DNA of 64,000 nucleotides. Origin: Squalus acanthias (Eukaryota). This document shows, one piece after another, positions 13,371-49,400 of this stretch. The first letter of the stretch is position 1. Each line of letters opens with the position of its first letter. Both the position numbers and the translations under genes were made by a program. Location of the stretch: the NCBI GenBank assembly GCA_030390025.1, contig JASTWF010000331.1:310001-374000 (forward strand). The letters are read 5' to 3'. The notes below the pieces were generated by a model. That model was not told where the DNA came from. It searched no databases and saw only the letters and a list, made by a program, of their open reading frames with translations.

Positions 13371-13371
13371 C

Positions 13372-22411: not shown

Positions 22412-22477
22412 TGCAGTACCAATGCACATGGCAGGTAACTTGAATACAGACAAGCCCTGCATGCACACCAGGTTTTG

Positions 22478-22518
<41 letters not shown>

Positions 22519-27163: not shown

Positions 27164-27415
27164 GGGAAGAGCTGGAAATCAAATAGATTTAAGGCCAGGG
27201 TAAAGCTGGGAAAAGGGGGAGGGGATAAAGGAACAAAGGAGGAGATGAAGAGACATTAAGAGACATTAAGAGATATGCAAGGCTAGAGGTGGTGTTAATG
27301 TGACAGATTAAGGCTGAATGAAGTGTGAAATCTACTGGCAGAATGAAGGACAGCTGCCAGCTTCTAGGAGGAAAAAAAAAGGTGGGGGGGACAAATAAAA
27401 GGGTGGATAAAATAT

Positions 27416-29305
27416 TTCTCTGCTCCCCTCACTCACTCCAACCTACCTCCCTCTGAACTTGCAGCACTCCATTCTCTCCGATCCAACCCTGACATTGTCA
27501 TTAAACCTGCTGACAAGGGTGGCGCTGTTGTTGTTTGGCGAACCGACCTCTACCTAGCGGAAGTTGAACGCCAACTCTCTGACACCTCCTCCTACCTCCA
27601 CCTGGACCATGACCCCACTACCGAACATCAAGCCACCGTGTCCAAGACTGTCACTGACCTCATCTCCTCTGGAGATCTTCCCCCCACGGCCGCCAACCTC
27701 ATAGTTCCCCAACCCCGCACAGCCCGCTTCTACCTCCTTCCCAAGATCCACAAACAGGACTGCCCCGGTAGACCCATCGTTTCAGCCTGTTCTTGCCCCA
27801 CGGAACTTATCTTTTCCTATCTCGACTCTATTTTTTCTCCCCTTGTCCAGTCTCTTCCCACCTACATCCGCGACTCTTCCGATGCCCTCCGCCATTTTAA
27901 CAGTTTCCAGTTTCCCGGCCCCAACCGTCTCCTCTTCACTATGGACGTACAATCCCTCTACACCTCCATTCCCCACCAGGATGGCCTGAGGGCGCTCCGC
28001 TTCTTCCTTGAACAGAGGCCCAACCAGTCCCCATCCACCACCACCCTCCTCCGCCTGGCTGAACTTGTTCTCACATTGAACAACTTCTCCTTTGACTCTA
28101 CCCATTTCCTCCAAATTAAAGGTGTTGCTATGGGTACCCGCATGGGTCCTAGCTATGCCTGCCTTTTCGTGGGATATGTGGAACACTCTTTGTTCCAGTC
28201 CTACTCGGGTCCCCTCCCTCACCTCTTTTTCCGGTACATTGATGACTGTATCGGTGCCGTCTCCTGCTCTCGCCCTGAACTAGAACATTTCATTCACTAT
28301 GCTTCCAATTTCCACCCTTCCCTCACCTTCACATGGTCCATCTCCGACTCTTCTCTTCCTTTCCTCGACTTCTCCATCTCCATCTCTGGGGATAGGTTAT
28401 TGACTAACATTCACTACAAGCCCACCGACTCCCACAGCTACCTGGACTACACTTCCTCCCACCCCGCCTCCTGTAAGGACTCTATTCCATTCTCCCAGTT
28501 TCTCCGTCTCCGCCGCATCTGCTCTGATGATGCCACCTTCCATACCAGTGCTTCCGACATGTCTTCCTTTTTCCTCAACCGAGGATTCCCCTCTACCGTG
28601 GTCGACACGGCCCTCGACCGTGTCCGTTCTATCTCCCGCACATCTGCCCTCACCCCTGCCCCTCCCTCCCGGAACCACGATAGGGTTCCCCTTGTCCTCA
28701 CCTTTCACCCCACCAGCCTCCACATTCAACGGATCATCCTCCGCCATTTCCGCCACCTCCAGCGTGATCCCACCACCAAACACATCTTCCCCTCACCTCC
28801 CCTTTCAGCATTCCGCAGGGACCGCTCCCTCCGCGACACCCTAGTCCACTCCTCTACCACCCCCAGCACCCCTTCCCCTTCGCCCGGCACCTTCCCGTGC
28901 ACGCGCAGGAGATGCAACACATGCCCTTATACCTCCCCTCTTCCCACTGTCCAGGGCCCCAAACACCCCTTCCAGGTGAAACAGCGATTTACTTGTACTT
29001 CCTGCAATTTAGTATACTGTATTCGCTGCTCACGATGTGGACTCCTCTACATTGGGGATACCAAACGCAGATTGGGTGACCGCTTTGCGGAACACCTCCG
29101 TTCAGTCCGTAAGGGGGACCCCGAGCTCCCGGTGGCCTGTCACTTTAATTCACCGCTTCACTCCCACTCTGACCTCACCGTCCTCGGCCTAATACACTGT
29201 TCCACGGAAGCTCAGCGTAAGCTCGAGGAACAGCACCTCATCTTTCGTTTAGGCACGCTACAGCCCTCTGGACTCAATATCGAGTTCAACAATTTTAGAT
29301 CATAA
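27416..29305 (+). CDS. PLE RT + GIY-YIG endonuclease ORF, open but lacking its 5' end
   Basis: PADKGG, MDVQSLYTSIPH, GVAMGT, RYIDD, C-x4-C-x2-C linker and LVYCIRC..LYIGDT motifs; no internal stop. Confidence 0.92.
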   Translation, partial: FSAPLTHSNLPPSELAALHSLRSNPDIVIKPADKGGAVVVWRTDLYLAEVERQLSDTSSYLHLDHDPTTEHQATVSKTVTDLISSGDLPPTAANLIVPQPRTARFYLLPKIHKQDCPGRPIVSACSCPTELIFSYLDSIFSPLVQSLPTYIRDSSDALRHFNSFQFPGPNRLLFTMDVQSLYTSIPHQDGLRALRFFLEQRPNQSPSTTTLLRLAELVLTLNNFSFDSTHFLQIKGVAMGTRMGPSYACLFVGYVEHSLFQSYSGPLPHLFFRYIDDCIGAVSCSRPELEHFIHYASNFHPSLTFTWSISDSSLPFLDFSISISGDRLLTNIHYKPTDSHSYLDYTSSHPASCKDSIPFSQFLRLRRICSDDATFHTSASDMSSFFLNRGFPSTVVDTALDRVRSISRTSALTPAPPSRNHDRVPLVLTFHPTSLHIQRIILRHFRHLQRDPTTKHIFPSPPLSAFRRDRSLRDTLVHSSTTPSTPSPSPGTFPCTRRRCNTCPYTSPLPTVQGPKHPFQVKQRFTCTSCNLVYCIRCSRCGLLYIGDTKRRLGDRFAEHLRSVRKGDPELPVACHFNSPLHSHSDLTVLGLIHCSTEAQRKLEEQHLIFRLGTLQPSGLNIEFNNFRS

Positions 29306-29619: not shown

Positions 29620-32600
29620 CTCTTTCTCTCTCCACGGATGCTGCCTGGCCTGCTGAGTTTTTCCAGCGTTTTCTGTTGTTATTTCGGATTTCCAGCATCT
29701 GCAGTATTTTGCTATCGTATAAATAATAATATATCTACTTTACTTCTGTTAATTAAATGTCTGCCTGTCTGTGGTTTGCCTGGAGTGTAATAACATGAAT
29801 GGAAAGATCGCAAAGCAAGTTTTGCTCTGAAAAAATCCCAAGCACATTCCCCAATAAAGACCAGTCCAGAAAAAAATCAAATGGATTATTCTGAAAATAA
29901 TTTAAAAAACATAATATACTTTTCTTAAATTTCTTGTTTTGTTTGGGTTGGGCTGAAGGGGAGAGTAAGATCCCACAGCAGGATGTGCCATGAAACATTT
30001 CACAAACATTCCCCTATAAAGTCCAGTCCAGAAAAATATCAAATGGCTTGATGTATATATGTAGATTTGCTTTTTTTCAAAATTCTTGAATGAAAGGCAA
30101 AGTAAGATCCCACAACAGTGCAGTCTGGAATTAAATCAATATGATCACATGGAGTAAACTTTCTGTTTTTTTCAGGCATGAGCTGCAGTAACAATGCACA
30201 CGGCAGAGAACTTGAACACAGACAAGCCCTGCATATACACCAGCTTTTGCTGTCTGTCTCTCTCTGTCACACACACACACTCACACAGGCCAGCCTCCAA
30301 AATTGCCACAAATTACTGTCAGCAATGAAAGAAAGTTGATTTATTTCATTACTCTGCTCTGTTTGTGAGTTTAAAAGCAAACAGACAGTTTTCAGTCTTT
30401 TATCTTCTCTTTTTGCGGCCTACAGAAACAGGCTTTCTATTCTATATCAAAAGCAAATGCTGTGGATGGAGGAAATCTGAAATCAAAACAGAAAATGTTG
30501 GAAATACTCAGCAGGTAAGGCAGCATCTGTGGCGAGAGAGAGAAACAGAGTTAATGTTTCAGCTCGATTACCTTTTGTCAGATTCTGGAAAGGTTCTGAC
30601 GAAAGGTCATCGAGCTGAAACATTTACTCTGTTTCTCTGTATCTCCACTGATGCTGCCTAACATACTGAGTATTTCCAGCATTTTCTGTTTTTATTTCTA
30701 TTCTGCATGTTGTCTTGATTTCATGTGTCAACTCTCACTGCCTGCCTGCCTTGTCTTGATCTAAGTAGAGTGGAATAAAAAGAATGCAAAGATCCCAGTG
30801 CAGCTTTTATTGTCAGACAGTCCACAAAGACATTTTTCAGTATCTCACTGACTGACTGTCTCTCATGAAGGGAAGTGAAATGAAATAATGTGCAATAAAG
30901 TGATACACAACAGCAATACATGTGGACCAGGCCAGAATGAAATCAATAGGGTTTAATACAACAACAGCAGGTAATAAGACAGCTGACCACATCTCACACA
31001 AACACCAGCTTTTGCCCTCTCTCTCTCACACACACACACTCACAGCCTGGTCAGCCTGCAGAGGGATGACTGCCGTGTGGGAAAATTTAAACCAAAAAAA
31101 CACTTTTCAGTATCTTATCTTTTCACTTTGTGACCTACAGAAACAGGCTTTCAATTCTGCTACTTGCCTTTTGATCTCATGTCTCTCTCGCTCTCACTGA
31201 CTGTCTGCCACTCACATAGTCTCCCTCCCACCCACATTGAAATAAAATTTACAGCAAGATGACACACACTCACACAGACTCTGCAATTTGCAGATACTCT
31301 CACACACACATTTATTTTGAAAGGGATGCACCCTGGGATTGTCAATTTTTGATGATGGTCACTTTCTGGATGTGCGTCCATGTTTGATGAGGAAAAACAA
31401 ACAGGAATAAGTGAAGCCGAGGCCCCAGAAATCCCGGTCCCCGAGAGGAAATGAAAGCCCGAGAGGGTGAAAGGAAGTAAATGCAATCAGTAATAAATAA
31501 TAATATATATACTTTACTTCTGTTAATTAAATGTCTGCCTGTCTGTGGTTTGCCTGGAGTTTAATAAAATGAATGGAAAGATCGCACTGCAGCTTTTGCT
31601 CTGAAAACATCCCAAGCACATTCCCCAATAAAGCCCAGTCCAGAAAAAAATCAAATGTATTATTCTTAAAATAATCTAAAAATATAATATATACTTTTCT
31701 TTAACAAATTTCTTGTCTTGTTTGAGTTAGGCTGAAGGGGAGAGTAAGATCCCACAGCAGGATGTGCCATGAAACACTTCATAAACATTCCCCTATAAAG
31801 ACCAGTCCAGTAAAATATCAAATGGCTTGATGTATATATGCAGATTAGCTTTTTACAAAATTCTTGAATGAAAGGCAGAGTAAGATCCCACCACAGCGCA
31901 GTCTGGAATTAAATCAGTATGATCTAATGGTGTATACTTTCTGTTCTTTTAAGACATGAGCGGCAGTACCAATGCACACGGCAGATAACTTGAACACAGA
32001 CAAGCCCTGCATACACAGCAGCTTTTGCTGTCTGTCTCTCTTTCTCACACACACACACGCCAGCCTGCAAAACTGCCACAAATCACTGTCAGCAATGAAA
32101 GAAAGTTGATTTCTATCATTACTCTGCTCTGTTTGGCAGTTTAAAAGCAAACAGACAGTTTTCAGTCTTTTATCTTTTCAGTTTGCGGCCTACCGAAACA
32201 GGCTTTCTATTCTGCATCAAATGCAAATCATGTGGAAGTGGGAAATCTGAAATAAAAACAGAAAGTTTTGGAAATACTCAGCAGGTAAGGCAGCATCTAT
32301 GGAGAGAGAGAGAAACAGAGTTAATGTTTCAGCTCGATTACATTTTGTCAGTTTCTGGCAAGGTTCTGACGAAAGGTCATCGAGCTGAAACATTTACTCT
32401 GTTTCTCTGTATCTTCACTGATGCTTCCGAACATACTGAGTATTTCCAGCATTTTCTGTTTTATTTCTATTCTGCATGTTGTCTTGATTTCATGTGTCTC
32501 TCTCACTGCCTGCCTGCCTTGTCTTGATTTGAGTAGAGTGGAATAAAAAGAATGCAAAGATCCCAGGCAGCTTTTATTGTCATACAGTCCACAACGACAT

Positions 32601-33553
32601 TTTCAGTATCTGACTGACTGACTGTCTGTCTTGAAGGGAAGTGAAATGAAATAAAGTGCAATGAAGTGATACACAACAGCATTACATGTGGACCAGGCCA
32701 GAATGATATCAGCAGGGTTTAATACAACAACAGCAGGTAATGAGACAGCAGACCACATCTCACACAAACACCAGCTTTTTCCCTCTCTCTCTCACACACA
32801 CACACTCACAGCCTGGCCAGCCTGCAGAGGGATGACTGCCGTGTTGGAAGATTAAAACCAAAAAGACACTTGTCAGTATCTTATCTTTTCACTTTGTTGC
32901 CTACAGAAACAGGCTTTCTGTTCTGCAACGTGCCTTTTGATTTCATGACTCTCTCGCTCTCACTGACTGTCTGTCTGTCTGTCCCTCATACAGTCGCCCT
33001 CCCAACAACATTGAACTAAAACTTACAGTAACATGAAACACACACTCAGACAGACTGTCCAATTTGCAGACACACAGACACCCACGCACATACAGAGGCA
33101 CTCACACAGTCTCTGCAATTTGCAGAAACTCACCCTCACACATCCATTTTGAAAGATGTGGAGCCTGGGAGTGTCAAATTTTGATGATGGTCCCTTCCTG
33201 GCTGTGCGTCCATGTTTAATGAGGACAAATAAACAGGAAGAAGTGAAGCCGAGGCCCCAGAAATCCGGGTCCCCGAGAGGAAATTAAAGCCCGGGAGGTA
33301 GAAAATAAGTAAATACAATCAGGAATAAATAATAATATATATACTTTACTTCTGGTAATTAAATGTCTGCCTGTCTGTGGTTTGCCTGGAGTGAAATAAA
33401 ATGAATGGAAAGATCGCACAGCAGCTTTTGCTGTGAAAACATCCCAAGCACATTCCTCAATAAAGCCCAGTCCAGAAAAAAATCAAATGGATTATTCTGA
33501 AAATCATTAATAAAATATAATATATACTTTTCTTTAACAAATGTCTTGTCTTG

Positions 33554-33897
33554 CTTGATACAGATACAGAACGTGACTTGACATCATGGCCGGTCTTTCC
33601 AGGTGTTTTTTTTTAAAAAGACGAACACAAGAACCAACACAAATAGACAGGATATGCAGCCAGCAGGTGTTTTGACACGTTGGACCCCCTGGGACACATC
33701 TCATTGTCTTGGCTGTGCTCTTAGTGTGTCTTTGATGTAGGGAAAGATTTGAATAGATTTTTACTGTGTTTGTATTGTGAATTCTGGGAGATTCTCTCAC
33801 TGCAACTCTACCTGAGGAAGGAGCGAACAGCTCCGAAAGCTTGTAAAATTAAATAAATCTGTTGGACTATAACCTGGTGTTGTGCGACTTCTCATTT
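33554..33897 (+). mobile_element. Solo/5'-truncated PLE pLTR insertion with hammerhead at 33809-33845
   Basis: TAC-CTGAGGA-A-GGAGC-GAACA-GCTCC-GAAA-GC-TT-GTA followed by the same tail as 58350-58390; TTGTCTTG direct repeat on both sides; absent from the other units. Confidence 0.82.
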
Positions 33898-34218
33898 TTG
33901 TCTTGTTTGGGTTCGGCTGAAGGGGAGAGTAAGATCCCACAGCAGGCTGTGCCATGAAACACTTCACAAACATTCCCCAATAAAGTCCAGTACAGAAAAA
34001 TATCAAATGGCTTGATGCATATATGTAGATTTGCTTTTTACAAAATCTTGTAAGAATGGCAAAGTAAGATCCCACCACAGCGCAGTCTGGAATTAAATCA
34101 ATATGATCTAATGGTGTATACTTTCTGTTGTTTTCAGACATGAGCTGCAGTAACAATGCACACGACAGATAACATGAACACAGACAAGCCCTGCATACAC
34201 ACCAGCTTTTGCTGTCTG

Positions 34219-34254
<36 letters not shown>

Positions 34255-36565
34255 AGGCCAGCCTGCAAAATTGCCACAAATCACTGTCAGCAATGAAAGA
34301 AAGTAAATTTCTATCATTACTCTGCTGTTTGGCAGTTTAAATGCAAACAGACAGTTTTCAGTCTTTTATCTTTTCAGTTTTTGGCCTACCGAAACAGGCT
34401 TTCTATTCTGCATCAAATGCAAATCCTGTGGAAGTGGGAAATCTGAAATAAAAACAGAAAGTTTTGGAAATACTCAGCAGGTAAGGCAGCATTGGTGAGA
34501 GAGAGAGAAACAGAGTTACTGTTTCAGCTCGATTACCTTTTGTCAGATTCTGGAAAGGTTCTGAGGAAAGGTCATCGAGCTGAAACATTTACTCTGTTTC
34601 TCTGTATCTCCACTGATGCAGCCTAACATACTGAGAATTTCCAGCATTTTGTTTTTATTTCTATTCTGCATGTTGTCTTGATTTCATTGTCTCTCTCATT
34701 GCCTGCCAGACTGCCTGCCTGTCTACCTTGTGTTGATTTGAGTAGAGTGGAATAAAAAGAATGCAATGATCCCAGACAGCTTTTATTGTCAGACAGTCCA
34801 CAAAGACATTTTCAGTATCTGACTGACTGACTGTCTGTCTGTCTTGAAGTGAAATGAAATAAAGTGCAATGAAGTGATACACAACAGCATTACATGTGGA
34901 CCAGGCCAGAATGAAATCAATAGGGTTTAATACAACAACAGCACGTAATGAGACAGCAAACCACATCTCACACAAACACCAGCTTTTGCCCTCTCTCTCT
35001 CTCTCACACACACACTCACAGCCTAGCCAGCCTGCAGAGGGATGACTGCCGTGTTGGAAAATTAAAACCAAAAAGACACTTTTCAATATCTTATCTTTTC
35101 ACTTTGTTGCCTACAGAAAAAGGCTTTCTATTCTGCTACTTGCCTTTTGCTTTCATGTCTCTCTCCCTCTCACTGACTCTCTGTCTGTCTCTCTCACACA
35201 CACACAGACACCCTCCCACACACATTGATATAAAATTTACAGTATCATGACACACACACTCACACACACTCTACAAATTGCAGAAACACAGACACCCACT
35301 CACTAACAGACACAATTACACAGTCTCTGCAATTTGCAGAAACTCACACACACACATCCATTTTGAAAGATGTGGAGCCTCGGAGTGTCAATTTTTGATG
35401 ATGTCCCTTCCTGGCTGTGCGTCCATGTTTGACGAGGACAATCAAACAGGACGATGTGAAGCCGAGGCCCAAGAAATCCAGGTCCCCGAGAGGAAATGAA
35501 AGCCCGGGAGGGTGAAAAGAAGTAAATACAATCTGGAATAAATAATAATATATATACTTTACTTCTGTTAATTAAATGTCTGCCTGTCTGTGATTTGCCT
35601 GGAGTGTAATAAAATGAATGGAAAGATCGCACTGCAGCTTTTGCTCTGAAAACATCCCAAGCACATTCCCCAATAAAGCCCAGTCCAGAAAAAAATCAAA
35701 TGGATTATTCTGAAAATATTTAAAAAAATAAAATATATACTTATTTTTAACAAATGTCTTGCCTTGTTTGGGTTGGGCTGAAGGGGAGAGTAAGATCCCA
35801 CAGCAGGATGTGCCAAGAAACAATTCACAAACATTCCCCAATAAAGTCCAGTACAGAAAAATATCAAATGGCTTGACGTATATATGTAGATTAGCTTTTT
35901 ATAAAATTCTTGAATGAAAGGCAAAGTAAGATCCCACCACAGTGCAGTCTGGAATTAAATCAATATGATCTAATGGTGTATACTTTCTGTTGTTTTCAGA
36001 CATGAGCTGCAGTACCAATGAACACGGCAGATAACTTGAACACAGACAAGCCCTGCATACACACCAGCTTTTGCTGTCTGTCTCTCTCTCTGTCACACAC
36101 TCACACTCACACACACACACACACACACACACAGAGCCAGCCTGCAAAATCGCCACAAATCACTGTCAGCAATGAAAGAAAGTTGATTTCTTTCATAGCT
36201 CTGCTCTGTTTGGGAGTTTAAAAGCAAACAGACAGTTTTCAGTGTTTTATTCTGCAGGTTGTCTTGATTTCTCTCACTGCCTGCCAGCCTGCCTTGTCAC
36301 ACACAAACTCACAGCCTGGCCAGCCTGCAGAGGGACGTCTGCCGAGTTGGAAGATTAAAACCAAAATGACATACAGACAGATTCTGCAATTTGCAGAAAC
36401 TCACATTCAGACAGACTCTGCAATTTGCAGAAACTCACACTCAGTCTCACATCCATTTTGAAAGGGCTGCAGCCTGGCAGCGGCTGAGTCACGTGACCCT
36501 GTGGCTGGGCCTCTGACATCACAATGGGCGATGACGCGATTAGCTCGAGCGGGAATCCGTTAAAT

Positions 36566-36656
36566 TCAATTAACGCCCACTATCAATCCGGGTCTTGTTC
36601 CCCGCAGTAACTCCAGCTGTTTCTCTCCGGATGAACTGAACCGATTGTTCCCCAGA
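36566..36656 (-). CDS. NLR terminal coding exon
   Basis: Acceptor TTTCAG; phase 2; LGNNRFSSSGEKQLELLRGTRPGLIVGVN-TGA. Confidence 0.85.
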
Positions 36657-36825
36657 CTGAAACAGATTAAAGATTAAACAGGAAATAAACAGATTGAACA
36701 TCAGTGTAAATAACCGCGAGATTGGGGTTAATATTTCAATAATAATTACAGACAAATATTACCCACAGTGACTGAATCCCATTGATATTTTATTTATTAC
36801 ATTAAACATTAACACAAACACTCAC

Positions 36826-36993
36826 TCGATCCACTTCAGACTCCGGCAGGTCAGTATGAGGCGGCGGAGAGCGGGGACAGATCGGTCTGTGAAGGAGTTT
36901 GATTCCAGGTCCAGATCCGTCAGTGAGCGGATTGTACTGAGAGCGGAGGCGAGATCCTCGGCACCAGAATCTGTGAGACCGACACCACCCAGC
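36826..36993 (-). CDS. NLR LRR exon (168 bp)
   Basis: CCCCAG acceptor, GTGAGT donor; LGGVGLTDSGAEDLASALSTIRSLTDLDLESNSFTDRSVPALRRLILTCRSLKWI. Confidence 0.92.
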
Positions 36994-37134
36994 CTGGGGA
37001 TCAGAGAGAGAAATAACAGGAATCAGAGTCAATCCCCAGAGTTTATTAATAACACTATTACTGATACTAATAATAATGTTCAGTGTCAGACATCCAGTTA
37101 TTATAAACACAATCTCACACAGTCTGGTACTTAC

Positions 37135-37305
37135 CCCAGTTTCTGTATTTTACAGTCCGGGTTCCTCAGAGCCGCAGACACTAGTTTCACTCCTGAATCT
37201 CCCAGTTTATTAACACTCAGGTCCAGATCCGTCAGTGAGCGGATTGTCCTGAGAGCGGAGGCGAGATCCTCGGCACCAGAATCTGTGAGACCGACATACC
37301 ATAGA
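37135..37305 (-). CDS. NLR LRR exon (171 bp, two RI-like LRRs)
   Basis: AG/GTAAGT boundaries; LWYVGLTDSGAEDLASALRTIRSLTDLDLSVNKLGDSGVKLVSAALRNPDCKIQKL. Confidence 0.95.
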
Positions 37306-37446
37306 CTGGGGATCAGAGAGAGAAATAACAGGAATCAGAGTCAATCCCCAGAGTTTATTAATAACACTATTACTGATACTAATAATAATGTTCAGTGTCA
37401 GACATCCAGTTATTATAAACAAAATCTCACACAGTCTGGTACTTAC

Positions 37447-37617
37447 TGCAGTTTCTGTATTTTACAGTCCGGGTTCCTCAGAGCCGCAGACACTAGTTTC
37501 ACTCCTGAATCTCCCAGTTTATTATCACCCAGGTTCAGATCTGTCAGTGAGCGGTTTGTACTGAGAGCGGAGACAAGATCCTCGGCACCAGAACCTGTGA
37601 GACCGACAGTCCGCAGA
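37447..37617 (-). CDS. NLR LRR exon (171 bp, two RI-like LRRs)
   Basis: AG/GTAAGT boundaries; LRTVGLTGSGAEDLVSALSTNRSLTDLNLGDNKLGDSGVKLVSAALRNPDCKIQKL. Confidence 0.95.
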
Positions 37618-37758
37618 CTGGGGATCAGAGAGAGAAATAACAGGAATCAGAGTCAATCCCCAGAGTTTATTAATAACACTATTACTGATACTAATAATAA
37701 TGTTCAGTGTCAGACATCCAGTTATTATAAACAAAATCTCACACAGTCTGGTACTTAC

Positions 37759-37845
37759 TGCAGTTTCTGTATTTTACAGTCCGGGTTCCTCAGAGCCGCA
37801 GACACGAGTTTCACTCCTGAATCTCCCAGATCATTTTCGTTCAGA
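37759..37845 (-). CDS. NLR LRR exon (87 bp)
   Basis: Pyrimidine tract + TTTAG acceptor, GTAAGT donor; LNENDLGDSGVKLVSAALRNPDCKIQKL; phase 2 matches the NACHT exon donor. Confidence 0.93.
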
Positions 37846-37949
37846 CTAAACACAAACAGAGAGAAACAAACTGAATCAAAGCCCGGATCTGATAAAATTT
37901 TCTCTCTCGGATATTACAGCAATCACTGAAAGTATTTCAGGGCATTAAT

Positions 37950-40900
37950 TACCCAGTTTCCCCCCGCGATTTCCCCCATGGGCGGGTCGGGTGGGGCCAG
38001 GGACGGTAGCGTGCCGGGCCGGGGGGGCCAGGTCGGGTGGAGTCGGTGGCGGGTCGGGTGGTGCTGGGGGCGGTGGCGGGTCAGCTGGGGCCGGGGGCGG
38101 GTCGGGTCGGGGTGGGGTCAGGGTCAGTGGAGGGTCGTGGCCTCGCTCTGGAGAATTGCAGGAAGCGGGCTTGATGACCTCATTTGATGACGCACACATT
38201 GAGTTTGCCCATTGTGATGTCAGTGTTCTACAGTATTGAGGTTCTACAAACACTGACAACATTGGCACAGAGGAGCTCGGCTGCACCCAGGCTCTCCCAG
38301 AACTCCCTCTATATGGTTATGGAGGGAGCCGCAGCACGCAGGGAGGTTCTCTTCACTTCCAACGGGCGGAATAGACCAACACAGCCTGCTTGCACATTGC
38401 ACAGTGAGGCTCAAGCAGGGATGTAGTCGGGAGGATCAGGCTGCAGTGGTACAAACCTTTCAATTATCTCAGTAGATCACAAAACGTTACTGCAAAGCCA
38501 CACTCAACCTCATTCTGCTGTGTCACTGATCATATCCCCATCACTCTGCCTTCCCTACTCTACTCCTGCACATTCTTACTCACAACTTACCTTGCACCTC
38601 CACCCATCCCACTCTCTCTAAATTATCACATGTCCATCTCACTAGCCACCCCACACACTCACCCTCGTCCTACTCCAATCATACCAAATAACAACACACA
38701 AGGGTAGGCAATTGTGTGTTTTAGCCAATGTTCATGTGAAGCTTCTGTTAATTCTTTTTATTAGTTTATGGGATCTGGGTGTCGCTGGCAATGCCAGCAT
38801 TTATTGCCCATATCTAGTTGACCTTGAGAAGGTGGTGGTGAGCCACCTTCTTGAAGTGCTGCCGTCTGTGTGGTGATGGTACTCCCACAGTGCTGTTAGG
38901 TAGGGAGTTCCAGGAATTTGACCAAGTGACGATGAAGGAACGGCGATATACTTCTAAGTCAGGATGGTGTGTGATTTGGAGGGGAACTTGCAGGTGGTGG
39001 TGTTCCCATGCTGCTGCTGCCCTTGTCCTTCTAGGTGGAAGAGGTCACAGGTTTGGGAGGTGCTGCCGTAGAAGCCTTGTCGAGTTGTTGCATTGCGTCA
39101 TGTAGATGGTGCACACTGCAGCCAAGTTGCGCTGGTGGTGGAGGGATTGAATGATTAATGTGGTGGATGTGGTGCCAATCAAGCGGGCTGCTTGGTCCTG
39201 TGATGTTGGGGACCTCAGGAGTAGGCCGATATGGATCATCCACTCGGCACTTCTGGCTGAAGATGGTTGCAAACGCTTCAGCCTTGTCTTTTGCACTGTC
39301 GTGCTGAGCTCCACCATCATTGAGGATGGGGATATTCATGGAGCCATCTACTCCCGTTAGTTGTTTAATGATCCACGACCATTCACGTCTGCATGTGGCA
39401 GAACTTCAGACCTTAAGACCTTAAACCTGATCCGTTGATGGTGGGATCGCCTAGCCCTGTCTATAGCACGCTGCTTCTCTTTTAGCATGCATGTAGTCCT
39501 GTGTTGCAGCTTCCCCATGTTGGCACCTCCTTTTTAGGTACGCCTGGTGCCGCTCTTGGCATGCTCTTCTACACTCGCTGTTGAACCAGGGTTGGTCCGC
39601 TGGCAATGTTAGAGTGAGAGATATGAGGTTACAAATTTTGGCGGAATACAATTCTGCTGCTGCCCCACAGCGCCTCATGGATGCCCAGTTGTGAGCTGCT
39701 AGATCTGTTCTGAATCTATCACATTTAGCACGGAGGTAGTGCCACACAACACGATGGAGGGTGTCCTCAGTGTGAAGATGGCTTCGTCTCCACAATGACT
39801 GTGCGGTGGTCACTGCTGCCACGGACAGATGCATCTGCGACAGGTAGAGTGGTGAGGACGAGGTCAAGTATGTTTTACCCTCACCACCTGCCGCAGGCTG
39901 GCTGGCTGTTATATCCTTCAGGACTTGGCCAGCAGTGGTGCTACCGAGCCACTGTTGGTGGTGGACATTGAAGTCCCCCACCCAGATTACATTCTGTGCC
40001 CTTGCTACTTCCAAGTGGTGTTCAACATGGAGGAGTACTGATTCATCAGCTGAGGGTGGGTGGTAGGTGGTAATCAGCAGGAGGTTTACTTGCCCATGTT
40101 TGACGTGAGTCATGAGACTTCATGGGGTCCGAAGTCAATGTTGAGGACTCCCAGGGACACTCCTTCCCCCGACTGTATACCACTGTGCCACCACCCCTGG
40201 TGTGTCTGTTCTGCAGGTGGGACAAGACATAACCAGGGATGGTGATGGAGAAATTCGGGACATTGGCTGAAAGGTATCATTCTGTCAGGCTGTTGCTTGA
40301 CTAGTCTGTGCGACAGCTCTCCCAATTTTGGCAGAAGTCCCCAGATGTTGGTGAGGAGGACTTTGCAGGGTTGACTGGGCTGGGTGCACTGTTGCCCTGT
40401 CCGTAGCCGGTGCCGAATGGTCATTTTGTTTCATAGCTGTTACTTACTAGGCCATTTCAGAGGGCAGTTAACAGTCAACCACATTGCTGTGGGTTTGGAG
40501 TTACTAGCCCAGTGACATTACCACTACGCTACCGTTCCCTAATGGGGTGTCAAACATTGTAATCTTTATTTTCAACTCTTTCCGTTTTTCAACAGATTTG
40601 TCTGCACCTTTGGATGTGGCTTTGTGAGTTGCAGTGAATGGTGAGACATAACAGAACTCCCCGCAATGCTGCTGAGTGTGACAGGAATGGTTTGGGCATT
40701 GTAGGGATGCTTTGTGTTGTTGGTGTGGGCTGGTGCCAACCTGGCGCATCATGTGTCATCCAGGGCGTACAGGGTCAAGTGAAGACAACCTGGCCAAAGT
40801 GAGGCCATCTCTGGTGCCCCGGGCAGCAATGTGGTCGGGTGTTGATACCCTCTGTGCTGTGCAGCATCAGGAGTTGCGGAACAGGTTGGTGTTGTTGTTG

Positions 40901-41540
40901 GTGCTGCTGGTGTGCCTGGTGCTGCAGGTGTTGGGGCTGATCGTGGCTGGGACTCTGAGGCCCAAGGTGAGACAGTATAAACCATACCCGTGCTGATATA
41001 ATAGATGGCAGGTGAACTTGAGATGTCAGAAGCAATCTGTCACTGGTGAGAGAGATTGTTCCATTGGGGGGACACTGGATAAAGAGTTTGCTCCAAACAC
41101 TTGCAGCCTGCATAAAGCTCAATCTGTCTTCCAAATGCAGTAAGCAACAGCGTCTGTGCTTGGAAAGTGAACAGCTGTGAGATGGGAGCTTTTATAGCAC
41201 ATTTCCAGCTGTCAAGTAATGAGATGATTCCATGGCCTTTCAACTCCCGCCCTGCTTACCTGACGTGATCCCCGAGCAGCCTGGACCACGTGGGCGACCT
41301 GGTAAACTCAGAAGGTGAGCAGAAAATAGTTGTTAATCCTTTGTTAACAAGGTCATAATGACCTGAATTGCCTCCCCTGCCGCAACATGTCGGGTCTGCT
41401 AAGCGCCGACAGACCCGACATTTGGGAAAGGCGCGTGGCGGCGGGTTGACAGCGGGGTCCAGACCTGCTGGGGAAAAATCCATTTTCCCAATTGACCCGC
41501 CACTGATCGCGCCCGCTGACCCTTGCGAAATTCCCCCCTC
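37950..41540. mobile_element. Probable degenerate PIF/Harbinger-like element (Myb/SANT remnant at about 38280-38480), interrupted by a LINE
   Basis: APRLSQNSL..AARREVLF..GRNRP and VVGRIRLQWYKPFNYLSRS resemble Harbinger Myb/SANT proteins; boundaries uncertain. Confidence 0.4.
38755..40538 (-). mobile_element. Degenerate non-LTR retrotransposon (APE endonuclease retained, RT largely deleted) with tRNA-like 5' head
   Basis: LLITTYHPPS..VGDFNVHH, PWFNSEC and KDKAEAFATIFSQKC motifs; head GGAACGGTAGCGTAGTGGTAATGTCACTG. Confidence 0.75.
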
Positions 41541-41924
41541 ACTGGGAATGTATCTCACTGTGTCCAACTGCCCATATATTCAGGGACTGTCCGTAACTGT
41601 ATTTATTAACTAAAGTGCTAACTGTATGAAGCCTTTAAATGTCCCTCAGTCCGGTCTCATTCCCTGATGATCAGAATTACCCTCCTGGAGCTCAGTGTCA
41701 TGTTTGGAGAAACTTGTCTCATTTCTGCTGCTCCTTAATTCCCGGAGTTTCTGGGAATGGGGCGATTTTCCCCAGAATTAAATGATAAAGCGGTGATTCC
41801 CTGTACTTTATACACTGCGCATTATATTAATCTGTATAATATCTTGGGGTGAGTTATATTGTGAAACGCTAACTGCTGCTGTAAAATCAGTCCCCCAGGA
41901 TTTTATATAACACGGAGAATTTAT

Positions 41925-43232
41925 TCTGAAATAAAAACAGGAAATGCTGGAAATCCCCAGCAGGTCAGGCAGCATCTATAGAGAGTGAAACAGAGTTAAT
42001 GTTTCAGGTCGAGGACCCTTCGTCAGAACTGGAAAAAGTTACAGATGTAACAGATTTTTAAGCAAGTGTCGGGGCCGGGAAAGGTGGGGGGAGCGGAGGA
42101 AAGAACAAAAGGGAAGGTCTGTGATAGGGTGGAAGACAGGAGAGATTAAAAGACAAAAGGGATGACGGTGCAAGCAAAAGGTGATGGTAATGGGACAAGT
42201 TAAGAAACAAAAGATGAATCTAGATGAGGTGTGAATGGCAATGGCAGAATCATCAACAGCTGTCATGCGAGAGAAAAAAAGGGAAAAGGAAAAACAATAA
42301 TGAAAAAAATAAAATAGGGGCCGAGTTTATAACCTGAAATTGTTGAACTCGATGTTGAGTCCAGAAGGCTGTAAAGTTCCTAATTGAAAGATGAGGTCTG
42401 TTCCTCGATCTTATGTTGTACTTTGTTGGAAGAGTGTAAGAGGCCGAGAATAGAGAGATCCGAGTGGGAGTGGAGCAGAGAATTAAAGCGATAGGCGACC
42501 AGAAGCTCGGGGTCACACTTACGGACTGAGCGGAGGTGTTCCACAAAGCGGTCACCCAATCTGCGTTTGGTCTCCCCAATGTAGAGGAGACCGCATCATG
42601 AGCAGCGAATAGAGTTTAATAAATTGCAAGAAGTAGAAGAAAATCGCTGTTTTACCTGGAAGGAGTGTTTGGGGCCCTGGACAGTGTGAAGGGAAGAGGT
42701 AAAAGGGAAGGTGTAGCATCTCCTGTGCTTGCACGGGAAGGTGCCGTGGGAAGAGGGAGGGGTGTTGGGCTGATTGAGGACTGAACCAGGGTGTCGTGCA
42801 GGGAGCGGGCCCTGCGGAATGCTGAAAGGGGAGGGGAGGGTAAGATGTGTTTGGTGGTGGTATCACGCTGGAGGTGGCGGAAATGGCGGAGGATGATCCG
42901 TTGAATGCGGAGGCTGGTGGGGTGAAAGGTGAGGACAAGGGGAACCCTATCGTGGTTCTGGGAAGGAGGGAAAGGGGTGAGAGCAGAAGTGCGGGAAATA
43001 GAACGGACATGGTCAAGAGCCGTGTCACCATGGTAGAGGGGAATCCTCGGTTGAGGAAAAAGGAAGACATGTCGGAAGCACGAGTATGGAACGTGGCATT
43101 GTCAGAGGAGATGCGGCAGAGACAGAAAAACTGGGAGAATAGACCAGGGTCCTTACAGGAAGCGAGGTGGGAGGAAGTGTATTCCAGGTAGCTGTGGGAG
43201 TCAGAGGACTTATAGTGAATGTTTGTCAATAG
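41925..43232 (-). mobile_element. Degenerate 5'-truncated Neptune-type PLE related to 27067-29718; hammerhead remnant at 41994-42030
   Basis: LLTNIHYK..DSHSYL.YTSSH and GIY-YIG remnants with frameshifts; pLTR with CTGACGA..GAAA. Confidence 0.9.
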
Positions 43233-44119
43233 CAGCAATAGAGTTTATTCTGTCCCGTTACAAGTTTCAAATGTCCATGTGCTCCTAGTTTATAGGGGAG
43301 GGGAGTCTCTCACTTTATTCCCATTAAACTGGCTCTACATTTATTTCAGGTGTAACTGGCCCGACAGTTAAGGGGGAATTTTCGGAACTTCCCTCCCCGA
43401 GCGGGGCCTCACACACAGGGGGCGGATTATTGGAAATTCCCGGCTTCACTGCCCCCAGTTTACCCAGGAGCCGCCCGCTGTTTGCGAGGCCCCACCGCTG
43501 GCCGGTGTGTGTCTGTACTCCGGTTAGATTGGAACCTTTTCACCGGCAGGTTTAAGATCCTGAATAGCAATCTTTACTCAATGTTCAGGACTGTGAATAA
43601 TTGTAAACATTTACAGCTGAAAGAATTCCCGATTCCCCAATATTCCCAATCCAGGAAACTACCCCCTCGACAGGACACACCCTGCACGGTATTGGAGTAA
43701 ATATCGAACTGTTAGTGATTTAAACTCGGGTTTCTCTCCTGTTCCCAGTTGAAATGGTGGATATGCAAAACATTTTAAATTAATTTTATCTTTACTGCCG
43801 GATTATATTGTATGTTTACATTCCGTTGTCCAGCCTTATTAAATATGATTTATTGTAATTAAATTATCAGACTCTCAGTGGCATGTATTTGCTGATCCGA
43901 TAAAGATTGTAAAATCCCTACTTGTTCACAAGGATCCATTTTAGATTCTCCAGTCCTTAGGGAATTACTGACCGATCCTCTTATTATTGGTCATATTTGT
44001 GTTGAATCTGCTTCTCACTGGTTTAACTGAACTGTTTGTTTCCCTACATTACGGAGCAACAGCACAATCCGTGACTGTTCTACAATTCACCCAACAGTTA
44101 GAGACAAATAAACAGTTAC

Positions 44120-45857
44120 CTCAACACCCGACATTTGTGCAGTTCGGGTCCCAGCCGCTGGAGTCCCTCACACTGAATGGAGCAGCCTCCGAGATTGAGT
44201 TCTTTTATTGTATCACAGAGTCCAATGACATGAGACAGGACCGCACAGTCAATCGGGGTCAATGTCAATCCACGAAATGTAAGTGATTTCACTGATCCCA
44301 CTGTTTTCCGAGCCAGACCTTTATTCTGAGACTCAAACAGGTAGTGGAATGTGTTCAGGAGGTTCCTTTTACCAGTTTCATTCCCTGTGTTCCTAATCTG
44401 TCCTTCAACCTTCTCCATCACCCAGTCAATCACTCGGCAGGTGGTTTGATGAAGAAAAGGACCCAGAAACTCCTCCAGGGGCCGAGCTGCCTGTGGGGAG
44501 GAGAGACCAGCAACAAAACGGAGAAATATCTCAAATCGCCCATCTTCCTTGCTGTGGGCTTCTCTGAGGAGGTTCAGGGTGTCCCCGGGATCTGGAGTCA
44601 GGAATTGTGTGAGTGCGGCTACAAACTCTTGGATGGTGAGGTGCGGGAATGTGTACACCACGCTCTGGGCAGAATCATCTCTCTCCAAAAGTTCCATCAT
44701 GAACCCAGACAGGAACTGGGAAGGTTGCAGATTGTACTTGATCAAATCTCCGTTTCGAAACACAATCTTCTTCTTGGAGACTCCTGTGAAGGCCATCTCA
44801 CCAAGCTTCAGTAGCACATCACGGGGGCTTTCAATCTCTCGGCCATGGTTTTTCAGAATGTTGTAAATATAGTAGGAATATAGTTGGGTGATGGTCTTGG
44901 GAACTCGCTGCTGATTCCTGTCTCTTTGTGTAAAGAAGGGACCCAGTGACAGACCGAGGATCCAGCAGTAGGAAGGGTTGTAGCTCATGGTGTACAGGAT
45001 ATCGTTCTCTTTCACGTGTTTGAAAACAGCTGCTGCCACCGCCTGATCTTCAAAAAACTTGTTGAAATATTCCTTCCGTTCTTCACCAACAAATCCCAGG
45101 ATTTCAGCCCAGACACTGATCTCAGCCTTTTCCAATAAATGTAATGCAGTGGGGCGGCTGGTCACTAGCACTGAACATCCTGGGAGCAGCTTGTGCTGTA
45201 TTAAACTGTACACAATGTCAGATACTTCACACCAGTCTTCAGGATCTGTGCACATGTGCTGAGGTTCTGTATTTCTCCGATTGTCAGCAAAATTGATCAC
45301 GTCCTTGAATTCATCCAAACCATCGAATATAAACAGCAATCCCTCTGGGTTCTTCCAGAGCTCTCCAAGATTATTCCCAAAGTAAGGATACAGATCCAGT
45401 ATCAGATTCCTCAGGTTTATTCGAAAGTTAATAGCGTTCAAATCCCGGAATTTAAAACTGAAAACAAATTGAAAGTGTGGGTATATTTTCCCAGTGGCCC
45501 AGTCATGAACAATTTTTTGTACCATTGTTGTTTTTCCAATCCCCGGGACTCCGCTCACTGCTCCTGAACTCCCAGAATTGGATTCTCTCCGGGAAAAACT
45601 GCTGTGGAACAATTGATCAGTTCGGATTTTCTCCAGTTCTCCCCGGAGGTGTTCCTCTCTCCACTCTTCATGGTCTCGGCCTCTTGCCAGCAGTTCATGT
45701 TCTACAAGTGTCCGATCTCGAACAGTAGAAATGACCGTTAACTCAGCGTATCGATCAACCAGCTGGAAAATCTTAACCTTCTCCTTTATTAGGATAGTGT
45801 TCACTCTCAGTGTTTCAGTTTGTTCCCGGAGTGTGTCCTTGTGTTTCTGCTGTACAT
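44120..45857 (-). CDS. NLR NACHT exon (NLRC3/NLRP3-like; NACHT-WH-HD2 plus first LRR)
   Basis: Walker A GVPGIGKT, Walker B LLFIFDGLDE, sensor VLVTSR, FPHLTIQEF, FEIFLRFVAGL; acceptor AG at 45859-45858, donor GTAACT at 44119. Confidence 0.96.
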
Positions 45858-46069
45858 CTTCAATTAGAATAGTCAGAAAGTGACTATTATTTGTATTGAC
45901 ATAAATACAACTTCTCAATACTATTTCACTATTCAGTAAAATATTGCAAGATTTAATTGGCAGTTTCGATAGAGATGCGTGTAGAAATTAAAACTCAGTT
46001 AGTAGCTGAGAAATGTTTCAAATCCTCACTTGATTCTAATATTAACTGGGAAATAGGGCACAGGATATC

Positions 46070-46452: not shown

Positions 46453-49400
46453 CTCAGCGTTCTACTCATTCGTTCGACTATTCTTTGTGCTAATTTCACT
46501 AAAATTATGAAGATAAACAATAACTTCCTAGTCACCCTGAACATTGTACATTTCTCACATTTCTACACGGATTAATGTTCTACTGTGTGAACATAAGTAC
46601 ATTTTCCCAGATCGGAAAAACCTCTTTCCGACATCTTATTTTGTGCTGAGAAGCGATAACATTTTGCTATTACGCATGTCTCCATCTCTTTCCCTACACT
46701 TTATGGTGAGACCGAATTCTAGGGGTCCAGAAACCCTGAATATGCAGCTCAAGGAAATGTAAGATCCCAGAGATTCTGTGTGGCACATGGGTGATGTGTA
46801 TTAAGATTTGCTGTATATTGGAAGAGTAGCTGAAGTGTATGATGCTTCACAGTGTATCAGGATACTGCCAGGTGTGTATGGGGTTTCACAGTGTATCAGG
46901 ATCCTGCAAGGTGTGTATGGGGTTTCACAGTGTTATCAGGATCCTGCCAGGTGTGTATGGGGTTTCACAGTGTATCAGAATCCTGCCAGGTGTGTATGGG
47001 GTTTCACAGTGCATCAGAATCCTGCCAGGTATGTATGGGGTTTCACAGTGTATGACGATCCTGCCAGGTGTGTATGGGGTTTTCACAGTGTATCAGGATC
47101 CTGCCAGGTGTGTATGGGGTTTCACAGTGTATCAGGATCCTGCCAGGTGTGTATGGGGTTTCACAGTGCATCAGGATCCTGCCAGGTGTGTATGGGGTTT
47201 TCACAGTGCATCAGGATCCTGCCAGGTGTGTATGGGGTTTCACAGTGTATCAGGATCCTGCCAGGTGTGTATGGGGTTTCACAGTGTATCAGGATCCTGC
47301 CAGGTGTGTATGGGGTTTCACAGTGTATCAGGATCCTGCCAGGTGTGTATGGGGTTTCACAGTGTATCAGGATCCTGCCAGGTGTGTATGGGGTTTCACA
47401 GTGTATCAGGATCCTGCCAGGTGTGTATGGGCTTTCACAGTGTATCAGGATCCTGCCAGGTGTGTATGGGGTTTCACAGTGTATCAGGATCCTGCCAGGT
47501 GCGTATGGGATTTCACAGAGTATCAGATCCTGCCATGTGTGTATGTGGTTTCACAGTGTATCAGGATCCTGCCAGTTGTGTATGGGGTTTCACAGTGTAT
47601 CAGATCCTGCCAGGTGTCTATGTGGTTTCACAGTGTATCAGAATCCTGCCAGGTGTGTATGGGGTTTCACAGTGCAACAGGATCCTGCCAGGTGTGTATG
47701 GGGTTTCCCAGTGAATCAGGTTACGCCCAGGTGTTTATGGGATTTCACAGTGCATCAGGATCCTGCCAGGTGTGTATGGGGTTTCACAGTGCAACAGGAT
47801 CCAATCAGGTGTGTATGGGGTTTCACAGTGAATCAGGTTCTAGCCAGTGGTGTATGGGCTTTCACAGTGTATCAGGATCCTGCTAGGTGTGTATGGGGTT
47901 TCACAGTGTATCAGGATCCTGCCAGTTCTGTATGGGGCTTCACAGTGTATCAGGATCTTGCCAGGTGTGTATGGGGTTAAACAATGTATCAGGATCTAGA
48001 CAGGTGTGTATGAGGTTTCACAGTGTATCAGGATCCTGACCGGTGTGTATGGGGTTTCACAGTGTATCAGGATCCTGCCAAGTGTGTATGGGGATTCACT
48101 GTGTATCAGGATCCTGCCAGGTGTGTGTGGGGTTACACAGAGTATCAAGATCCTGCCAGGTGTGTATGGGGTTTCACAGTGTATCAGGAACCTGCCAGGT
48201 GGGTTTGGGGTTACACAGAGTATCAAGATCCTGCCAGGTGTGTATGGGGTTTCACAGTGTAACAGGATCCTGCCAGGTTTTTATGGTGTTTCACAGTAGA
48301 TCAGGAACCTGCCAGGTGTGTATGACTTTTCATAATGTATCAGGATCCTGCCAGGTTAGTTTGGGGTGACACAGTGTATCAGGATCCTGCCAGGTGTGTA
48401 TGTGGTTTCACAGTGTATCAGGATCCTGCCAGGTGTGTATGGGGGTTTAATAGTGTATCAGGATCCTGCCAGTTGTGTATGGGTTTTCACAGTGTATCAG
48501 GATCCTGCCAGGTGTGTATGGGGTTTCACAGTCTATCAGGATCCTGCCAGGTGTGTATGGTGTTTCACAGTGTATCAGGATCCTGCCAGGTGTGTATGGG
48601 GTTTCACAGTGTATCAGGATCCTGCCAGGTGTGTATGGGGTTTCACAGTGTATCAGGATCCTGCCAGGTGTGTATGGGGTTACACATTGTATCAGAAACC
48701 TGCCAGGTGTGTATGGGGTTTCACAGTGTATCAGGATCCTGCCAGGGGTGTATGTGTTTGCTCAGTGTATCAGGATCCTGCAAGGTGTGTATTGGGTTTC
48801 ACAGTCTATCAGGATCCTGCCAGGTGTGTATGGGGTTTCACATTCTATCAGGATCCTGCCAGGTATGTATGGGATTTCACAGTGTATCAGGATCCTGCCA
48901 GGTGTGTATGGGGTTTCACAGTGCAACAGGATCCTGGCAGGTGTGTATGGGGTTTCACAGTGAATCAGGAACCTGCCAGGTGTGTATGGGGTTTCACAGT
49001 GTATCAGGATCCTGCCAGGTGTGTATGGGGTTTCACAGTGTATGGGGTTTCACAGTGTATCAGGATCCTGCCAGGTGTGTATGGGGTTTCACAGTGTATC
49101 AGGATCCTGCCAGGTGTGTATGGGGTAACACAGTGTATCAGGATCCTGCCAGATATGTATGGGGTTTCACAATGTATCAGGATCCTGACAGGTGTGGATG
49201 GGGTTTCTCAGTGTATCGGGTTCCTGTCAGGTGTGTATGGGGTTTCAGTGTATCAGGATCCCGCCAGGTGTGTATGGGGTTTCACAGTGTATCAGGATCC
49301 TGCCAGGTGTGTATGGAGTTTCACAGTGTATCATGATCCTGCCAGGCGTGTATGGGGTTTCAGAATGTATCAGGATCCTGCCAGGTGTGTATGGGTTTTC

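Follow-up and report, generated by a model that had tools for sequence, protein, structure and literature searches.

The leucine-rich repeats (LRRs) of NLRP3 and of most NLRs are encoded by 171-bp exons that each hold two LRRs of 28 and 29 residues, with the exon border at the same place of the beta-sheet; the repeats adopt the ribonuclease-inhibitor-type fold, and the modularity of the NLRP genes permits in-frame exon skipping (PMC6642158, Hoss et al. 2019). Here we analyse an array of such exons in the shark Squalus acanthias, located at 36826-37845 on the minus strand of a window of 64,000 nucleotides, i.e. the whole stretch of DNA analysed (assembly GCA_030390025.1, contig JASTWF010000331.1, positions 310,001 to 374,000). 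The array encodes the LRRs of a single gene copy from a very large family of NLRP3-like NACHT-LRR genes. We regard it as rather probable that the exon-intron unit of this array undergoes concerted evolution, combined with diversifying selection on the LRRs' concave face. The shark gene resembles the human NLRP genes in its symmetric 171-bp two-LRR exons with a border inside a beta-strand, but its family comprises hundreds of copies with variable unit number and near-identical introns, whereas human NLRPs are few and, in the available parts of the sources, a homogenised LRR pool with hypervariable strand positions is not reported for them.

Several described systems share part of this pattern. 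The zinc-finger minisatellite of PRDM9, also a vertebrate gene, combines near-identical tandem units, hypervariable contact residues and variable unit number; it differs in being a single gene, with an array that lies inside one exon and binds DNA. In the somatic assembly of VLR genes, an incomplete germline gene is completed from flanking cassettes, whereas the germline array of the shark is already complete and open. The WD repeats of Podospora het-d/het-e (HNWD) undergo concerted evolution within and between loci, vary in repeat number, and carry a few interaction-surface residues per repeat under positive diversifying selection (PMC1805685, Paoletti, Saupe and Clave 2007). The HNWD family consists of ten genes encoding a WD40 propeller, with repeat-induced point mutation (RIP) proposed as an extra source of mutation (PMC1805685), whereas the shark arrays consist of LRR repeats, contain an intron in each unit, and have one variable codon split by that intron. 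Like HNWD, the shark arrays have units more alike than their non-repeat parts, repeat numbers that vary between paralogs and, by counting methods, a few positively selected surface positions per repeat. Ectocarpus ROCO genes carry short single-exon LRRs in shuffled exon-intron arrays with positive selection on the concave face (PMC3341825, Zambounis et al. 2012), but these brown algal genes have 72-nt one-LRR exons, a GTPase partner domain and spare LRR copies in their introns, and the available text does not state that the introns are uniform (PMC3341825). The zebrafish NLR-B30.2 (NLR-C) family has hundreds of genes with a large NACHT exon, single-exon LRRs and gene conversion (PMC4852459, Howe et al. 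2016); its target of positive selection is the C-terminal B30.2 domain rather than the LRRs, whereas the shark family has no B30.2 exon and no Pfam Fisna domain in its NACHT exon, and varies in its LRRs.

Within sharks, an expanded NLRP-related family is known from the whale shark genome (PMC8455134), and NLRP3-like gene models at NCBI belong to the same family as the window gene (82-89% identity over the NACHT exon, the same exon products and the same C-terminal tail). These models and the available text of the whale shark paper name or count the genes and contain no analysis of LRR hypervariability or of the introns. The regime described here was not found for a shark or any other vertebrate NLR in the literature searched, which did not extend to subscription journals.

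Architecture of the LRR array

The minus strand is the coding strand for the whole array, and the limits of the span 36826-37845 coincide exactly with the end of the last LRR exon and the start of the first short one. In Tandem Repeats Finder the period is 312 nt, with 3.0 copies and 96% matches (36905-37829), and the 312-bp unit consists of a 171-nt LRR exon and a 141-nt phase-2 intron. The parts of the array, in the order of transcription, are as follows.

37759-37845, minus strand: first short LRR exon E0, 87 nt, acceptor tttag/TCTGAAC (frame and translation)
37618-37758, minus strand: in-array intron 1, 141 nt, GT..AG, phase 2 (sequence comparison)
37447-37617, minus strand: LRR exon E1, 171 nt, two LRRs of 28 and 29 residues (translation)
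37306-37446, minus strand: in-array intron 2, 141 nt (sequence comparison)
37135-37305, minus strand: LRR exon E2, 171 nt (translation; exon-exon joins in contigs of sequencing run X8)
36994-37134, minus strand: in-array intron 3, 141 nt (sequence and contig joints)
36826-36993, minus strand: last LRR exon E3, 168 nt (alignment with paralogs)

Introns 1 and 2 are identical and intron 3 is one nucleotide off, all three being 141 nt long with GT..AG borders. E1 and E2 (171 nt each) differ at 15 nucleotides (0-based exon positions 3, 4, 7, 8, 23, 42, 44, 57, 62, 75, 82, 88, 92, 169 and 170); 12 of the differences are non-synonymous and those at positions 3, 42 and 75 are synonymous by codon reading, so that 9 of 56 whole codons and the trailing split codon are altered. 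Compared with the introns, Fisher's test gives p=1.8e-4 for 15/171 against 0/141 and p=1.2e-3 against 1/141. Thirteen of the 15 mismatches lie within exon positions 3-92 and the other two are the last two bases of the exon, while the invariant tract is unbroken over exon positions 93-168 and then takes in the intron, with variable bases at both intron borders. Because each in-array intron interrupts its codon after the second base (phase 2), E1 and E2 are symmetric, and every junction of the window gene is likewise in phase 2. E0 matches the 3' half of a unit, whereas E3 is homologous to the unit over its 5' 88 nt and unique over its 3' 80 nt. The E3 donor (GA/GTGAGT, phase 2) overlaps an in-frame TGA and is kept in 34 of 34 aligned paralogs.

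An earlier, sequence-only reading of this stretch had proposed the 312-bp unit, introns 0-1 of 141 nt apart, and exons 15 nt apart with three synonymous changes and 10 of 57 amino acids replaced. Coordinates and translation confirm the unit, and the counts were reproduced, the ten replacements being nine codons plus the split codon. The exon segment that it singled out is indeed invariant, although the emphasis had to be shifted to the longer tract (exon 93-168) that is continuous with the intron. The symmetry of the phase-2 exons was read correctly, as all junctions show, and the modular architecture is present but is the standard one of NLRP genes (PMC6642158).

Contigs of four public sequencing runs from at least three organisms were compared with positions 36400-37305; runs X1 and X7 are labelled as DNA, and X6 and X8 are putatively RNA, a software guess rather than a recorded label. 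Two X8 contigs and four X6 contigs carry joints from which precisely the 141 nt of intron 3 are missing (CT..AC on the plus strand); the 169-nt last intron is skipped in one X8 and two X6 contigs, and three X8 contigs connect one 171-nt exon immediately to the next. No such joint is present in this interval in the DNA runs X1 and X7. The predicted junctions are thus matched by contigs of the two putative RNA runs. Contigs of all four runs cover the intron, with variable letters mainly in the exons. In X8 and X6, unlike X1 and X7, contig depth is far lower over introns than over exons; since contig depth is no measure for ranking gene segments, this was not used as evidence.

Uniformity of introns and scaffold across paralogs

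We gathered 38 paralogous arrays from the same genome, chosen as the best matches to the window's own unit. They contain 122 introns and 84 internal exons, of which 116 introns and 77 exons were analysed after leaving out six introns with indels and seven exons that are not 171 nt long. The anatomy of the unit is the same in the 38 arrays, which lie on more than 20 contigs; seven arrays have a frameshifted exon or a stop and 31 are intact LRR modules. Two pairs of arrays, L037 (C20:58.19 Mb) with L047 (C2857:0.36 Mb) and C3377 with C252, are identical or nearly so in introns and exons, and each pair is probably one locus assembled twice or a very recent segmental duplicate; the near-duplicate C252 was dropped and L037/L047 was kept in the counts. 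Six further regions yielded two with usable whole introns, one (L056) with a disrupted partial intron, and three with none.

Nucleotide diversity in this sample is 0.019 in the introns (n=116) and 0.083 in the exons (n=77). Introns of the same gene are as distant from each other (0.0190, 150 pairs) as introns of different genes (0.0190, 6520 pairs), position in the array has no clear effect on intron distance, and 41 of the 116 introns are one identical sequence. Synonymous diversity in the 50 scaffold codons is 0.0195. The introns are therefore no more conserved than silent exon sites, and the whole unit is uniform except for particular codons. Intron diversity is spread evenly across the 141 sites and leaves no unconstrained patches.

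The DNA around the repeated units, listed here in the order of transcription, served for comparison in the same genes.

44120-45857, minus strand: large NACHT exon with NACHT, winged-helix and HD2 domains and the first LRRs (open frame and Pfam)
37846-44119, minus strand: long intron between the NACHT exon and the first LRR exon, about 6.27 kb
36657-36825, minus strand: last intron, non-repeated, 169 nt (sequence and contig joints)
36566-36656, minus strand: terminal coding exon for about 30 residues (one further LRR-like strand plus a tail) and the stop codon (tblastn and frame)

Divergence is 0.049 in the NACHT exon (0.062 at third codon positions), 0.054 in the first 800 nt of the long intron, 0.074-0.078 in the 145 nt upstream of the first LRR exon, 0.07-0.08 in the unique half of E3, 0.21 in the terminal exon and 0.15 in the 3' untranslated region (3'UTR). 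Divergence of the flank exceeds that of the introns in 275 of 276 gene pairs. When CpG columns are removed, the values are 0.015-0.018 for the in-array introns, 0.070 for the 145 nt upstream of E0, 0.049 for the long intron and 0.133 for the 3'UTR. Two stretches of the long intron were set aside: its last 1000 nt, where an insertion in the window copy and its closest paralog spoils the alignment, and positions -300 to -146 upstream of E0, which a minisatellite makes the least alignable stretch of the paralogs (0.34 apparent divergence). The terminal exon falls into two deep classes of 17 and 13 genes with a fixation index (Fst) of 0.48, against -0.12 for the in-array introns. These classes are invisible in the adjoining introns and in the 3'UTR, and the smaller one is nearly confined to short arrays, with two introns in 11 of its 13 genes. 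Compared across sharks, the scaffold is for most species more alike inside the species than from one species to another, with an identity of 0.90 within this genome against 0.67-0.82 to the others.

Hypervariable codons in or just behind predicted strands

Numbering the 57-residue repeat from the split codon (position 1), we find six hypervariable codons per exon, at positions 1, 3, 4, 29, 31 and 32. The 18 exon bases of these codons have a mean diversity of 0.42, against 0.044 in the remaining 153 bases. Amino-acid entropy is highest at positions 3, 32, 1, 4 and 29 (3.06 to 1.64 bits), followed by positions 13, 56, 11, 31, 34 and 27, and five of the six highest-entropy positions are found among the 10 x positions (of 57) of the two xxLxLxx motifs (p=3e-4; Mann-Whitney p=5e-6). 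There are 73 distinct six-residue signatures in 77 exons. Smaller samples from eight other shark species agree in that positions 1, 3, 4 and 32 lead the entropy in most of them.

The structural position of these residues was read from an AlphaFold model of an annotated shark homolog (P0016) that has the exon architecture of the window gene, a model built from an alignment of 18 homologs. The predicted local distance difference test score (pLDDT) of the model is 88-96 across the LRRs, which form strand-helix repeats with strands at repeat positions 56-57-1 and 27-29; the NACHT part, with a pLDDT below 50 for 490 residues, was not used. With strands so placed, the variable residues are predicted to be, in each of the two LRRs of the exon, the final residue of the strand and the pair that follows the next leucine. 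The exon border falls inside a beta-strand, since the split codon is position 1, the last strand residue in the P0016 model. Such strand side chains of ribonuclease-inhibitor-type LRRs face the concave surface.

Nei-Gojobori counts were made on 76 stop-free exons; these are counting methods and do not include a recombination-aware site model. Over the whole exon the proportion of non-synonymous differences (pN) is 0.095 and that of synonymous differences (pS) 0.052, a ratio of 1.88. The six hypervariable codons have a pN of 0.43, and the remaining 50 codons a pN/pS of 2.6. The pattern of variability and selection is unchanged when the 31 intact arrays are considered.

Reassortment and probable unequal exchange

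Diversity is also very high at silent sites within and next to the variable codons: it is 0.45 at the third base of the position-2 leucine codon, and pS at codons 31-32 is 0.66-0.75. Adjacent variable codons are strongly associated (z=6.8 for codons 3-4 and z=12.8 for codons 31-32), and the two bases that precede the intron showed no association with those that follow it (p 0.15-0.87), nor did sites 70-85 nt apart in the exon. Linkage is thus limited to adjacent codons, and each unit has three short variable segments that reassort freely. An apparent link of codon 1 to codons 2-3 across the intron was rejected as an artefact, since the third base of the split codon sits in the downstream exon. 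Old, short haplotypes, kept and shuffled against a homogenised background, seem a better description of this variation than new point mutations in young copies.

The number of introns per array is two, three, four, five and six in 15, 10, 6, 4 and 3 genes, respectively. Two of the six-intron arrays (L038 and L045) have near-identical units two positions apart, and therefore contain a duplicated two-unit block.

Family membership and size

Searches with the 312-nt unit gave 171 matches in the shark's own genome (40 of 508 candidates scored), and searches with the NACHT exon gave 73 matches in the 3.7-Gb assembly (71 of 754 candidates scored). The NACHT-exon matches are 88-95% identical in protein and 48 of the 73 carry stops. 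At least 23 copies on different contigs share the same in-frame stops (three TGA and one TAA, with or without one TAG), a common set which suggests that a dead copy of the NACHT exon was itself amplified. The family is clustered, with many further copies on small contigs: the first 20 Mb of contig C29, which is 20.9 Mb long, contain at least 15 LRR arrays of the subfamily, and the contig of the window carries three NACHT exons.

Among public proteins we found 1683 relatives. The best 120 of these are all shark gene models, 82-89% identical, which NCBI names 'NLRP3/12-like' or 'NLRC3-like', mostly as NACHT, LRR and PYD domains-containing protein 3-like. Within these 120, nine shark species are represented, which we take to belong to five shark orders, and many protein lengths step by 57 residues. 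The closest solved relative of P0016 is NLRP3 (E about 1e-104), and that of its LRR part is ribonuclease inhibitor (E 4e-73); P0016 also matches LRR_6 in Pfam. The window gene has the features of an NLR, namely a NACHT domain with helical and winged-helix extensions and C-terminal ribonuclease-inhibitor-type LRRs. It is an ordinary member of its family, and its exon architecture is textbook.

The gene and its surroundings

The window copy reads open from the NACHT exon through the stop codon. The NACHT exon is held by an open frame of 623 codons (44116-45987), in which Pfam finds NACHT (6.2e-38, 130.7 bits, cut-off 26.7), NOD2_WH (8.9e-14) and NLRC4_HD2 (2.5e-16). Its donor is AG/GTAACT, phase 2, at 44120/44119, and its putative acceptor is placed at 45857 on splice-site sequence. 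Neither the NACHT exon nor P0016 has a SPRY or Fisna match in Pfam, and the gene is without a B30.2 exon. The terminal exon was located by tblastn with residues 939-963 of P0016, and its tail is also found in annotated shark proteins. The N-terminal exons of P0016 (residues 1-152) gave no tblastn match anywhere in the 64-kb window, and those for an N-terminal death-fold effector domain (PYD or CARD), as expected of the NLRP-like branch, may lie beyond it.

The long intron measures 6270 nt here, 6501 nt in the closest paralog and 2607-2921 nt in eight others (nine paralogs measured), and contains a retroelement-like open frame at 39451-40119. Within 37960-38140, about 120-300 nt upstream of the first LRR exon, it carries a minisatellite of 21-27-nt units (38024-38137 by Tandem Repeats Finder) that is G-rich on the plus strand and C-rich on the gene strand. 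A search of 36500-38100 against Rfam at E up to 1 found no RNA family, and there is therefore no sign of an intron-hosted RNA.

The sequence of the window is of vertebrate type and rich in interspersed repeats. Directly downstream of the gene, 30000-36400 consists of tandem 1.8-2.2-kb units (about four copies, 66-96% alike) and also holds CA microsatellites and, at 36369-36444, a 34-nt mini-repeat. Long satellite-like blocks, open in several frames on both strands, occupy 14200-22600 and 46800-64000, the latter broken by reverse-transcriptase frames of retroelements at 50166-52765 (minus strand) and 56441-57652 (plus strand). More retroelement frames lie at 90-584, 13120-14232 and 27368-29305.

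Discussion

Under concerted evolution with diversifying selection, the whole unit (introns, scaffold codons and synonymous sites) would act as one pool in the sampled subfamily, with unit number altered by unequal crossing-over. Exchange between units, within and between loci, would hold neutral sites at about 2%, while the neighbouring non-repeat DNA would have drifted to 5-15%. Diversifying selection would keep or create variation at six solvent-facing x positions of the xxLxLxx motifs per exon, on the concave sheet, and the free reassortment of segments would then give a concave surface of its own to nearly every unit and, in consequence, to every gene. The outcome is likely to be a germline-encoded repertoire of cytosolic sensors with many binding specificities. 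We infer exchange, rather than constraint or youth, as the cause of the uniformity, because intron diversity equals silent-site diversity and because other sharks have species-specific scaffold states.

The sequence-only reading had likewise suggested that conversion or crossover homogenises the scaffold while selection diversifies the recognition residues. The diversity contrasts across the family and the exon-wide dN/dS of 1.88, above the value of 1 or less that it had named as contrary to it, support this suggestion, although ongoing conversion is only inferred and no unit shared by otherwise diverged loci was found. Its placement of the changes in or next to the beta-strand segments agrees with their concentration on the x positions (p=3e-4) and with the strands of the P0016 model, and the change in copy number that it expected is seen in the range of 2-6 introns among the 38 arrays. 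The uniformity that it noted in the three introns of this gene is a property of the whole sampled subfamily, as 41 of 116 introns are identical; a single conversion tract or an assembly collapse is excluded as the full explanation by the 38 arrays on many contigs and by the four public runs. Nothing in the data, in which no test was aimed at them, points to the exon skipping or the somatic variation that it also raised.

Several observations weigh against the favoured explanation. The 38 arrays, as best matches to the window unit, are biased toward one subfamily, and that the concave face binds ligands is presumed from other LRR proteins. The pN/pS ratio in the hypervariable codons is only 1.4, because the linked synonymous sites are also very diverse. 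In the 38-array sample, no 171-nt unit is common to two otherwise diverged loci, and the only identical array pair, L037/L047, looks like one locus assembled twice; the argument for exchange between loci is therefore one solely from patterns of diversity. The genealogy of the introns is star-like (Tajima's D -2.68, 85 segregating sites, pi 2.68 nt), and Tajima's D is -2.35 in the last intron and near zero in the exons and the 3'UTR; a star-like genealogy is unexpected under neutral exchange at equilibrium and expected under constraint or recent spread. Divergence is also rather low in the non-repeated last intron (mean 0.043, median 0.020-0.024), and the uniform zone therefore comprises the whole LRR module, beyond its tandem part. 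Run X1 shows another letter at two intron positions, at 24% and 51% of depth. In two distant stop-bearing copies, the introns are 4-6% from the consensus and 8% apart within a gene. These facts fit constraint on the introns of working copies, or the recent spread of one LRR module, about as well as they fit steady exchange.

Constraint is the first of these alternatives, and we consider it unlikely, if worth serious attention. It holds that purifying selection acts on the introns and on the synonymous scaffold of functional copies, e.g., for the correct splicing of near-identical exons, that the surface codons are under ordinary diversifying selection, and that true neutral divergence is 5-8%. 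The low diversity and the excess of rare variants in both the in-array and the last introns (D -2.68 and -2.35; last-intron median 0.020) are consistent with it, as are the two distant stop-bearing copies, whose introns differ by 8% within the gene as if constraint had been released, and at a neutral level of 5-8% the omega of the surface codons would, by our own arithmetic, be an ordinary 6-10 or so. However, the match between intron diversity (0.019) and scaffold synonymous diversity (0.0195), two different kinds of sites, would need a coincidence, the even spread of diversity along the intron leaves no room for unconstrained patches, and the Rfam search (E up to 1) gave no match. Moreover, the 7 broken arrays of the 38 belong to the same low-diversity pool (introns 0.0198 in intact arrays, 0.019 overall), and the species-specific scaffold states of other sharks indicate more than one workable scaffold.

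A young burst, in which the units spread recently from one ancestor and point mutations accumulated under strong positive selection with no ongoing exchange, seems to us distinctly unlikely. Such a burst would account for the star-like intron genealogy, for the 41 of 116 identical introns and for the lack of a unit common to diverged loci. Yet the flanks, NACHT exon and 3'UTR are 3-8 times more diverged, so that the genes are older than the LRR introns, and the high diversity of synonymous sites in or beside the variable codons (0.45; pS 0.66-0.75) and the haplotypes formed by adjacent variable codons are also at odds with it. By our own arithmetic it needs an omega of about 20-30 against a neutral level of 1.9%.

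As an extension of the exchange favoured here, the introns might be kept as homology tracts that drive the exchange of LRR surface cassettes among hundreds of loci. The result would be a germline cassette-shuffling repertoire, an innate counterpart of VLR assembly in lampreys or of immunoglobulin gene conversion in the chicken, possibly with somatic exchange or regulated exon skipping. We mention this as a speculation with little chance of being correct.

That the family consists largely of pseudogenes, in which exon differences reflect relaxed constraint, is very improbable: 7 of 38 arrays do have a frameshifted exon or a stop, and 48 of 73 NACHT-exon matches have stops, many in the same pattern, but the variation is mostly confined to 6 of 57 codons with nearly invariant scaffold residues, the 31 intact arrays give the same result, spliced forms occur in contigs of the two putative RNA runs, and the reading frame of the window copy is intact from the NACHT exon onwards. 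Hardly credible is an assembly artefact, i.e. identical introns produced by repeat collapse or polishing, because, although near-identical tandem repeats are error-prone and L037/L047 and C3377/C252 look like duplicate assemblies, 38 arrays, spread over more than 20 contigs, share the same anatomy, and contigs of four runs from at least three organisms cover the intron and vary mainly in the exons.

If concerted evolution of the unit together with diversifying selection is the correct explanation, the family would provide a vertebrate case in which repeat homogenisation and diversifying selection coexist where the unit includes an intron, and six positions per exon would be defined for work on ligand specificity. 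Arrays with identical 141-nt introns are easily collapsed in assemblies or mis-spliced in gene models. In the expanded NLR family of zebrafish it is the B30.2 domain that forms the variable module (PMC4852459); sharks, in contrast, would carry hundreds of cytosolic NLR sensors with differing LRR concave faces, beside a full adaptive immunity.

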